Made by a program: the position numbers and the translations under genes
UHGV virus genome: UHGV-0060833
Strand: one strand, 5' to 3'
DNA length: 64,000 bases
Source of the DNA: a virus
Shown here: positions 46,297 to 48,439 of the stretch, piece after piece
Layout of the letters: each line of letters opens with the position of its first letter
How positions within the stretch are numbered: the stretch's first letter is position 1
The notes under the pieces: generated by a model
Seen by the model: the letters and a program-made list of their open reading frames with translations, nothing else
Database searches by the model: none
What the model was told of the DNA's origin: nothing

Positions 46297-46313
46297 ATTG
46301 CTCTAATAATTCC
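46297..46313 (+). promoter_or_regulatory. C1 operator-like site
   Basis: attgctctaataattcc, 14/17 match. Confidence 0.55.
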
Positions 46314-46321
46314 GTATTTTT

Positions 46322-46352
46322 AAAACGTGATGTACACTCATCACGTTTTTTA
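46322..46352. terminator. Bidirectional terminator flanked by two inverted operator copies
   Basis: aaaacgtgatg-tacact-catcacgtttttt. Confidence 0.65.
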
Positions 46353-46362
46353 TTAGAGCAAT
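46346..46362 (-). promoter_or_regulatory. C1 operator-like site (inverted)
   Basis: ttattagagcaat is the reverse complement of the ATTGCTCTAATAA core. Confidence 0.55.
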
Positions 46363-46376
46363 ATACAAGGTGCACT

Positions 46377-46595
46377 ATGTGGCCATTCCGACGGAAATAT
46401 CACTACTGGCTGATCGCCTTTGTTACGCCGACCGGCGGTATCAGGCATGTCATCACCAGGTATCGCAACAAGAGACTCACCTTAGCCAGAATTTTACAGG
46501 CTGCCATAGGTGAGGGACTGGATACAAATTGCGTAGTCCTTCCTCCTTCATACTTAGGAAAAATGACCGAAGCACAAGCTAATACGGAACTTTGA
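46377..46595 (+). CDS. Hypothetical small protein
   Basis: 72-aa ORF immediately before and coupled to the 420-aa gene. Confidence 0.4.
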   Translation: MWPFRRKYHYWLIAFVTPTGGIRHVITRYRNKRLTLARILQAAIGEGLDTNCVVLPPSYLGKMTEAQANTEL

Positions 46596-46596
46596 A

Positions 46597-47859
46597 ATGA
46601 TCACTTCAGCACAAAACCAATCAATCGAAAATGTATCTATCCCTGACGTCCTGAATGCCGGTATCCCGGCCATTATCCAGAACATCCGGGCCGCGCAACG
46701 CCGCGTTAGTTGTGATGACCTCACAGCGCGTTTTTTTGATAATGCGGTTCAGTCAGCGGAGATGCTTCACGCACAGCTTATTGATGTTTATAACGCAGAA
46801 GCTGATAGCCATAACTCCCTGGTAGATGCAGCTGAAAATATGCAGTTGGATCTCGGTCTGAAGGATAAAGAAATTGAAGAGCTTCAGCTGCAAATTGAAC
46901 ATTTGAAACGCCAGCAACAGGACGCGATCGACGATGCGACGCATGACGCCAACCAGCGTGCTGATAATGCCGAACGTATAAGCATTGAGCTGGAAACAAA
47001 ACTCAATGAAATGACCGCGATGCTTGAACTGCGGAACTCACAGATTTCAACGCTAAAATCTCAATATAAAGAGATCATGAAACTTGATCCTTTTAACCTT
47101 GAGAAACGCTATAACAAAGCTAAAAGCGAGCGACAGGAACTGCGTAAGCAGGTCGCCGACCTTAACCAACAGCTCAAAAAAACTATTAAAGATGCAAGCG
47201 AAGCGCGCGTGGCATTTGCTAATAAAAAAGCAGAGGTTACCGCGCTGGTTAATGAGAATGCCAAATTTGCGACGCTCAAGAAGGAAATGTATGGCATTAC
47301 TGAGCACCGTTTCCCTGCAAGCAAACTTCATCCGACGTTAGGGCAAATCTCCTTCTTCCCGCGTCTCCTGGCTTATGGGATCTCATCGCCTAAAGAGTTC
47401 AATAACGAGCGTCCTTATATCGTTTCTAAGCTGGACTTTGCTTATCAGTTCTGCTGCGACATGGGCTATGCCATTGATATCCGAATCAACGAATGGTTGA
47501 TGCCAAACTTCCAGCCGTTGGCAATTTTCCGCGAGTTCCAGCCGGAAGGTTGGGTAGAGTTCTTCCATGAATTGATCTGTAAAGAGATGGAAAGCCGCCG
47601 CCCGGAACTGGTCCGCCGTGTCGAGTGGGCGCAAGAGGTTATGTTGGCAGATGCAGAGCTGCCGTTCGAACCGGAATTCATTGATGATCTGGCAACTAAA
47701 GGGCTGCATACCCTGTTTGATGTGGTTACCCGCCGTCATGAGCAGTTGGTTGTCGAATTGGGTTTAGAGGAAACTGCGGCAAGAAGACTTCTCGATGTTT
47801 GCTATGCACGTAGCGATGCATGGGAAAAAGAGAACGGCGGCACTATTTACGTTCGCTGA
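46597..47859 (+). CDS. Coiled-coil protein with unknown C-terminal domain
   Basis: 420 aa; residues ~60-230 heptad-rich; terminator follows. Confidence 0.5.
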   Translation: MITSAQNQSIENVSIPDVLNAGIPAIIQNIRAAQRRVSCDDLTARFFDNAVQSAEMLHAQLIDVYNAEADSHNSLVDAAENMQLDLGLKDKEIEELQLQIEHLKRQQQDAIDDATHDANQRADNAERISIELETKLNEMTAMLELRNSQISTLKSQYKEIMKLDPFNLEKRYNKAKSERQELRKQVADLNQQLKKTIKDASEARVAFANKKAEVTALVNENAKFATLKKEMYGITEHRFPASKLHPTLGQISFFPRLLAYGISSPKEFNNERPYIVSKLDFAYQFCCDMGYAIDIRINEWLMPNFQPLAIFREFQPEGWVEFFHELICKEMESRRPELVRRVEWAQEVMLADAELPFEPEFIDDLATKGLHTLFDVVTRRHEQLVVELGLEETAARRLLDVCYARSDAWEKENGGTIYVR

Positions 47860-47881
47860 TAGTTACAGTGTCACTTTTAAT

Positions 47882-47913
47882 GCTGGTGGAGTGCGTCCCA
47901 CCAGCATTTTTTT
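47882..47913 (+). terminator. Intrinsic terminator
   Basis: gctggtgg-agtgcgtc-ccaccagc followed by attttttt. Confidence 0.7.
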
Positions 47914-47932
47914 CGTCCAATGAGGAGGGCAT

Positions 47933-48439
47933 TTGAGTATTTTCAATAAACACGCACACCAGGAACGTCCGTATATCGTCATAGTCGATATTGATGGAAC
48001 AATATCAGAGGCAACTGAAGACAGACTGCATTTGCTTCCGCCACCAGGTAAAGGTGCATTAACAAAGGACTGGAACGAGTTTAATCTCGCCTGTGACACC
48101 GATACTCCCATCACTCCAGTTATTGATATGGTGCGCCAGTTATTTAACGTTTACACGGTCTGGTTTGTAACCGGGCGCTGTGAGATCGCAAGGGATAAAA
48201 CACGAGCTTGGCTGCGGAAATACGTAACAAACGGGGCTGAGCCTTTGCTATCTATGCGTCCTGCCACCGATGACAGAAATGACGGCCCAGCAAAGATTGA
48301 TCTCCTTAAGAAAATTGGTCTAAGTAAAATCGCGTTCGCGCTGGAAGATAAGATTGAAGTGGCGCGTGTTTTCAGGAGTCACGGCGTACTTACGTTAATG
48401 GTCAGGGAGTATGAAAACGCGCTTCTCCATCAACAATAA
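47933..48439 (+). CDS. HAD-superfamily phosphatase-like protein
   Basis: TTG start after gaggag; IVDIDGT (DxDGT) nucleophile motif; 168 aa. Confidence 0.55.
   Translation: MSIFNKHAHQERPYIVIVDIDGTISEATEDRLHLLPPPGKGALTKDWNEFNLACDTDTPITPVIDMVRQLFNVYTVWFVTGRCEIARDKTRAWLRKYVTNGAEPLLSMRPATDDRNDGPAKIDLLKKIGLSKIAFALEDKIEVARVFRSHGVLTLMVREYENALLHQQ

Follow-up and report, generated by a model that had tools for sequence, protein, structure and literature searches.

The two-gene unit at positions 46297–47913 of the 64,000-nucleotide stretch of viral DNA analyzed here (the window) is the pmgR–pmgS operon of phage P1, carried on a P1/P7-like phage-plasmid. By megablast the locus shares 98.8–99.1% nucleotide identity with P1, P7 and SJ46 (100% coverage, 19 P1-like records), and the curated P1 record agrees with it feature by feature (OpmgRa/Op86a, PpmgR, OpmgRb/Op86b, pmgR and pmgS). 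The initial annotation, made from the sequence alone, had described a unit of unknown function; its genes are in fact named, pmgR and pmgS in P1 and shtA and shtB in P7, and knock-outs have been published. The operators, genes and knock-out phenotypes are already in the literature, and nothing in them is new for P1 biology. What is new in the present analysis is the compensatory retention of a hairpin between the operators and its overlap with the promoter, the modeled architecture of PmgS (a coiled-coil hairpin, an α/β subdomain and an (HhH)2 head), and the size of the PmgS family together with its link to RecT/exonuclease genes. The gene contexts suggest that PmgS, labeled a ‘head morphogenesis’ protein, is rather an early accessory protein tied to DNA recombination genes.

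Control region and predicted transcript of pmgR–pmgS

Using as our criterion for a P1 C1-repressor operator an asymmetric 17-bp site matching ATTGCTCTAATAAATTT, we find Op86a (OpmgRa; ATTGCTCTAATAATTCC) at 46297–46313 on the plus strand and Op86b (OpmgRb; ATTGCTCTAATAAAAAA) at 46346–46362 on the minus strand. Each matches the P1 C1 consensus at 14 of 17 positions, with its first 13 nucleotides, the core ATTGCTCTAATAA, exact, and both are annotated in AF234172 and in P7, in agreement with the two inverted C1 operators that had been reported here. The core occurs seven times in the window, compared with 0.00 expected from shuffles. Control of pmgR and pmgS by C1 is stated by annotation in the records of P1 (AF234172) and P7, and the early expression that the initial annotation ascribed to the unit would follow from these operators. 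A search with a crude late-promoter pattern modeled on LPhot returned only chance-level matches, none of them near the operon, a weak negative result.

The predicted sigma-70 promoter PpmgR lies on the plus strand with a −35 hexamer, TTGCTC, at 46298–46303 within Op86a and a −10 hexamer, TAAAAC, at 46321–46326, the latter mapped from AF234172 and weak. The annotated PpmgR was not among the hits of our sigma-70 promoter scan, and none of the other −35/−10 pairs that we inspected by eye was convincing. A candidate alternative −10-like hexamer is present at 46333–46338, where the window has TACACT and aligned relatives have TATTAT or TATCAT.

This hexamer forms the loop of a hairpin between the operators (46322–46349, both strands), in which 46322–46332 pairs with 46339–46349 to give an 11-bp stem and a 6-nt loop. 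An A-run lies on its 5′ side and a T-run, with six T after the G-C core, extends on its 3′ side to 46351 and is overlapped by the inverted operator Op86b. Both strands have a predicted folding energy of −13.4 kcal/mol (z = −6.0 for the plus strand and −4.6 for the minus strand). In diverged relatives four of the 11 stem pairs are changed on both sides in a compensatory manner, 98% of cells across the whole structure are paired compared with 41–60% in slid controls, and the conservation score was reached by only one of 500 shuffles. Op86a, Op86b and the hairpin are kept in five lineages in the alignment of relatives; the operator–hairpin–operator arrangement is maintained in relatives whose PmgS is 53–71% identical, and inverted operator-like repeats also lie 5′ of the gene pair in a relative with a PmgS that is 27% identical. 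A bidirectional terminator had been proposed at 46322–46352; the hairpin is stable on both strands and covaries, but our mechanical terminator scan did not list it (46322–46351). In our opinion the scan missed it because maximal A-U extension of the stem consumes the T tract. The version of the hairpin in one relative (L004) is without a clean T-run.

The hairpin is probably a terminator of read-through from the pmgN–pmgQ operon. Since it overlaps the predicted PpmgR, it would block transcripts arriving from pmgN–pmgQ rather than bracket a pmgR–pmgS unit. In a lysogen, C1 bound at Op86a and Op86b would silence the weak sigma-70 promoter that lies between and within them. Either candidate −10 hexamer would place the transcription start within or past the hairpin loop, so PpmgR transcripts would miss the 5′ arm and continue into pmgR. 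An RNA starting in the loop is predicted to be unstructured (−2.3 kcal/mol, z = +0.96).

Downstream of the control region lie pmgR (shtA in P7; 46377–46595, plus strand), encoding a basic protein of 72 amino acids and preceded by the Shine-Dalgarno sequence AAGGTG 4 nt 5′ of its start, and pmgS (shtB in P7; 46597–47859, plus strand), encoding 420 amino acids, just as the two open reading frames had been described. The pmgR stop and the pmgS start are one base apart, which suggests that translation of pmgS is probably coupled to that of pmgR. After pmgS, the top match of the terminator scan is an intrinsic terminator on the plus strand (47879–47915), a G+C-rich stem-loop at 47879–47908 (11-bp stem with six G-C pairs, 8-nt loop) followed by a T7 run, that is, the stem-loop and U tract of a rho-independent terminator. 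Its folding energy is −18.6 kcal/mol (z = −5.1), it is conserved in one of the relatives (L079), and it corresponds to the strong terminator previously placed at 47882–47913.

Twenty-four nucleotides past this terminator begins pap (47933–48439, plus strand), which encodes a HAD-type polynucleotide 3′-phosphatase-like protein (PF25109 HAD_PNKP, E = 8e-12). The P1 record has no promoter annotated for pap, so read-through is probably needed for its expression; some transcripts would pass the strong terminator, and pap is probably the distal member of the pmgR–pmgS transcript. The initial annotation had called the unit insulated and self-contained. Terminator-like structures do lie on both sides of it, but the upstream one overlaps the promoter and pap probably depends on read-through.

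Modeled architecture of PmgS, its family and the neighboring gene pmgR

PmgS matches phrog_1660 (E = 1e-194) and is 99.3% identical to P1 PmgS, a protein that falls below Pfam thresholds. The AlphaFold2 (AF2) model of the full-length protein is of low global confidence (pTM 0.41). It places residues 42–232 (46720–47292, plus strand) in two long helices, 42–160 and 166–232, modeled as an antiparallel coiled-coil hairpin whose arms would be about 118 residues each; the long coiled-coil N-terminal half noted initially is thus recovered in the model. The apex is a conserved K-L-D-P at residues 162–165 (nucleotides 47080–47091), immediately after residues 159–161 for which pLDDT falls below 50. Among the 44 family members that belong neither to the P1 clade nor to the P1-like intermediates, 89% retain P165. 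The first helix has a net charge of −13 and the second of +7, and this complementarity supports the antiparallel hairpin.

The globular C-terminal part (residues 233–420; pLDDT 92.9 in the C-terminal model) had previously been left as an unassigned domain. We can now assign residues ~351–412 (47647–47832, plus strand) to an (HhH)2 module of the RAD51-N-terminal-domain / RNAP α-CTD / NusA-AR type, modeled with the five helices and two helix-hairpin-helix motifs of that fold. Residues 233–350 (47293–47646, plus strand) form an α/β subdomain of a β-sheet and helices, for which structure prediction and fold searching detected no structural relative; a Foldseek search of BFVD with the C-terminal model gave no match at E ≤ 0.001.

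The (HhH)2 module of the P1 clade departs from that of the family at large. Most other members carry the G-h-G / basic DNA-contact signature, which is absent from the PmgS of the window. P1-clade copies have a degenerate second hairpin (L-G-L-E versus K-G-I-G in the family) and a module with a net charge of −8, whereas modules outside the P1 clade are near-neutral; all P1-like copies also lack the WH..R strand motif of the family. With an acidic module, the K-G-x-G hairpin lost and the WH..R motif missing, the P1-clade PmgS may have a protein and not DNA as its ligand, or its role may have shifted.

Several apparent matches were set aside. Sub-threshold matches to TPR, SMC, JetC and LmuB in Pfam, NCBIfam and PADLOC are compositional coiled-coil noise, and the top PDB-sequence profile match for the full-length family, gp26, the tail needle of P22 (E = 0.0012), involves the coiled coil only. 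We also rejected PmgS as an SMC/Rad50-type protein: it has no ATPase head or Pfam ATPase domain, and its coiled-coil match scored 19 bits where the cut-off is 729.

A profile search gathered about 120 sequence clusters of PmgS-like proteins, most with the same architecture, in temperate phages of gamma-proteobacteria. In 54 of 62 IMG/VR prophage loci, which are not phylogenetically independent, genes for RecT and/or a YqaJ, PDDEXK or 3′-5′ exonuclease lie at most four genes upstream on the same strand. They are mostly at positions −1 and −2, and excisionase/integrase genes (xis/int) lie downstream. The order in Aeromonas prophages is cI/cro ... exonuclease – RecT – 362-aa protein – PmgS-like – Dam – RdgC ... 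integrase. The possibility that the Aeromonas copies represent a core chromosomal gene was considered and rejected, as they lie in integrase-bounded prophages. In Vibrio phage douglas and two further loci (L075 and L010) a methyltransferase gene is found directly 3′ of the PmgS-like gene; in Aeromonas one short gene intervenes, and in L012 the methyltransferase gene lies two genes upstream. Both in P1-like relatives and in D6, pmgS sits in the darB/pmgM cluster, far from head genes and near the DarB/Ulx antirestriction genes. Adjacency to RecT/exonuclease genes is absent from the window and from P1-like elements, where the neighbors are ppp, pmgQ and pap, and evidence for the association thus comes only from distant relatives (~16–29% identity).

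PmgR matches phrog_3177 (E = 4e-47), a family of unknown function, and we found no relative of it in Pfam, NCBIfam or PDB sequences, the PDB search being empty even at E = 10. Its homologs lie directly 5′ of pmgS homologs in L003, L004, L011, L013/14 and D6, and pmgR and pmgS stay side by side in all P1/D6-like relatives with an inspectable flank, down to a PmgS identity of ~20–30%. Many members of the PmgS family have no PmgR-like partner.

Roles of PmgS and PmgR

The two genes differ in their published genetics. An in-frame ∆pmgS mutant has no plaquing or antirestriction defect, pmgS is published as non-essential, and PmgS is unnamed in the main text and tables of the same paper, which includes a virion proteome (PMC9024508). 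CRISPRi also scored pmgS as non-essential, and the gene is among the 21 most conserved of 77 P1-like phage-plasmids. Alleles of pmgS with a frameshift, present in contigs that are P1-like in other respects, likewise speak against a morphogenetic role. An in-frame ∆pmgR mutant, by contrast, yields no virions but tails and incomplete heads, and supplying pmgR, one of five P1 genes newly recognized as essential, in trans rescues it; the tails are unjoined, which the authors read as a head-completion defect, and the particles look like those of a packaging-defective ∆pacA control (PMC9024508). This morphological phenotype is the sole one on record for the operon, which counts against a role in DNA transactions.

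Database labels nonetheless assign PmgS to the virion: the P1 record speaks of a ‘putative morphogenetic function’, that of P7 of ‘sheath structure/contraction’ and that of D6 of a ‘putative prohead scaffolding protein’, while PHROG 1660 is filed under ‘head and packaging’. A head scaffolding or morphogenesis protein is required for infectious particles, and PmgS, judged by the published ∆pmgS mutant and CRISPRi, is not. Nor does pmgS look like a late structural gene or its product like a particle component, given the C1-operator promoter, the position of relatives in early operons and the silence of the proteome paper. Profile, PDB and Foldseek searches revealed no similarity of sequence or fold to scaffold, sheath or head proteins, and the Pfam, PDB-sequence and structure searches together gave no clear homology to any characterized structural or assembly protein, the finding that would have overturned the initial annotation. 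The head morphogenesis, scaffolding and sheath labels on PmgS are therefore most likely placeholders. The label ‘PmgS-like head morphogenesis’ (PHROG 1660, RefSeq) is spreading onto prophage genes that lie between recombination and integration genes, and, if it is a placeholder, annotations that derive from it are probably in error.

We lean, though not strongly, toward pmgR–pmgS being a C1-controlled operon in which PmgS is an early DNA-transaction accessory, with PmgR as its partner or counteractor, and not a virion builder. PmgS would be a tether or adaptor without enzymatic activity that works early, either on phage DNA undergoing replication or recombination or on a protein processing such DNA. 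PmgR, needed for complete, filled heads according to the published genetics, would cooperate with PmgS or oppose it so that phage DNA becomes fit for packaging.

Another reading of the same early operon is that PmgS serves in counter-defense or host takeover, as an early inhibitor or decoy of a host nuclease or defense system (for instance Gam-like, against RecBCD/SbcCD, or against an SMC-type system), dispensable in permissive K-12 hosts and with a separate role for PmgR. A gene that is dispensable in the laboratory yet so widely conserved among P1-like phage-plasmids would fit, as would the DarB/Ulx neighbors in P1-like relatives and D6, the orphan methyltransferase genes next to family members in loci of Aeromonas, Vibrio and elsewhere, and the strongly acidic long helix and acidic (HhH)2 module of PmgS. 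An early operon shared with recombination functions is likewise what this reading expects; lambda carries gam in its early operon alongside recombination functions. Antirestriction was unchanged in the published ∆pmgS assay, however, PADLOC models gave no match beyond coiled-coil noise and no known anti-defense protein is similar. The support is one of context, and we consider the reading rather unlikely.

The difference between the two knock-outs could also mean that PmgR is an antidote: PmgS without PmgR would harm packaging or head filling, and PmgR would restrain PmgS or assemble it correctly. Loss of pmgS is tolerated and the in-frame loss of pmgR is lethal and rescued in trans, the genes are one nucleotide apart and conserved as a pair across the P1/D6-like relatives, and the ∆pmgR particles resemble those of ∆pacA. 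Moreover, the EOP was 0.94 when pmgR carried a dCas12a roadblock. Since roadblocks in the same CRISPRi study were polar on downstream genes, pmgS should have been co-repressed, and a polar block that is tolerated where ∆pmgR is lethal raises the idea that PmgR is possibly needed only when PmgS is made. Against this, four other essential genes (mat, repL, 25 and 26) also escaped detection in that screen, for which its authors blame ineffective guides, and many PmgS-family members lack a PmgR-like partner. Some otherwise P1-like contigs have a frameshifted pmgS and an intact pmgR, an anecdotal and uninformative sample. On balance the antidote reading strikes us as improbable, even though a relation of this kind between PmgR and PmgS could explain both the essentiality of pmgR and the disagreement between deletion and CRISPRi.

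A bolder form of our preferred account combines these elements: PmgS-like proteins would be widespread, so far unrecognized coiled-coil tethers with a RAD51-NTD-like (HhH)2 head in the early recombination modules of temperate phages, PmgR would restrain or chaperone PmgS in P1-like phage-plasmids, the ∆pmgR phenotype would be a block in DNA processing or packaging brought about by PmgS left unrestrained, and a ∆pmgR ∆pmgS double mutant would be viable. We hold this full combination to be distinctly improbable. RecT/exonuclease modules underlie recombineering tools, and accessory factors could alter their efficiency.

Long coiled coils are common in scaffolding proteins. A virion-assembly operon, with PmgS as a head scaffold, head-morphogenesis or sheath-contraction factor and PmgR as a head-completion or sheath protein, would agree with this, with the labels and with the trans-rescued ∆pmgR defect, but is very unlikely given the normal plaques of ∆pmgS, the absence of PmgS by name from the proteome paper, the repressor operators without a late-promoter-like motif, a location remote from head genes, the position of most family genes between prophage recombination and integration genes, and the lack of any similar scaffold, sheath or head protein.

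Comparison with known systems

The closest known system is P1 itself (AF234172 / NC_005856; annotation of Lobocka et al., 2004), at 98.8% nucleotide identity and with the same order, pmgQ–Op86a–PpmgR–Op86b–pmgR–pmgS–pap–Op88. There are few substitutions inside the pmgR–pmgS unit; past Op88 the window has a convergent type I hsd locus where P1 has pmgT–V. The sht operon of P7 (shtA/shtB) shares every gene and operator, is 98.8% identical and differs in name and functional label alone, and nothing in the present analysis backs its sheath label.

More distant is the D6-type locus, comprising D6 orf10/orf9 (‘similar to pmgR’ and ‘putative prohead scaffolding protein’) and the L013/L014 plasmids, in which a PmgR-like gene is likewise followed by a PmgS-like gene in a darB–ulx–pmgM cluster. 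As in P1, a repressor-type palindrome or inverted operator-like repeats lie 5′ of the pmgS-like gene. The D6-type locus differs from P1 in that PmgS identity is ~20%, the PmgR-like protein has 97–99 amino acids and a C-terminal hydrophobic helix, and the two genes are set apart by a terminator plus a separate operator.

At the level of domains, PmgS shares its (HhH)2 type with the RAD51/RAD51C N-terminal domain, the RNAP α-CTD and NusA AR1/AR2 but is without a recombinase, polymerase or NusA core. Judged against reference sequences, the P1-clade module comes closer in net negative charge to the NusA AR repeats, which bind protein, than to the near-neutral modules of the family. Unlike Rad50, SbcC and SMC proteins, PmgS has no ATPase head, Walker motifs or zinc hook; as in their arms, a long antiparallel coiled coil, here with the conserved K-L-D-P apex, is modeled as joining the N- and C-terminal parts.

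The lambdoid PL operons carry accessory genes between exo/bet and xis/int, for example lambda ea22 and orf60a–63. The analogy with these genes is positional, and the P1 copy does not lie beside recombination genes. Most members of the PmgS family would nevertheless resemble the lambda PL accessory genes in being repressor-controlled, early, dispensable and located 3′ of recombination genes.

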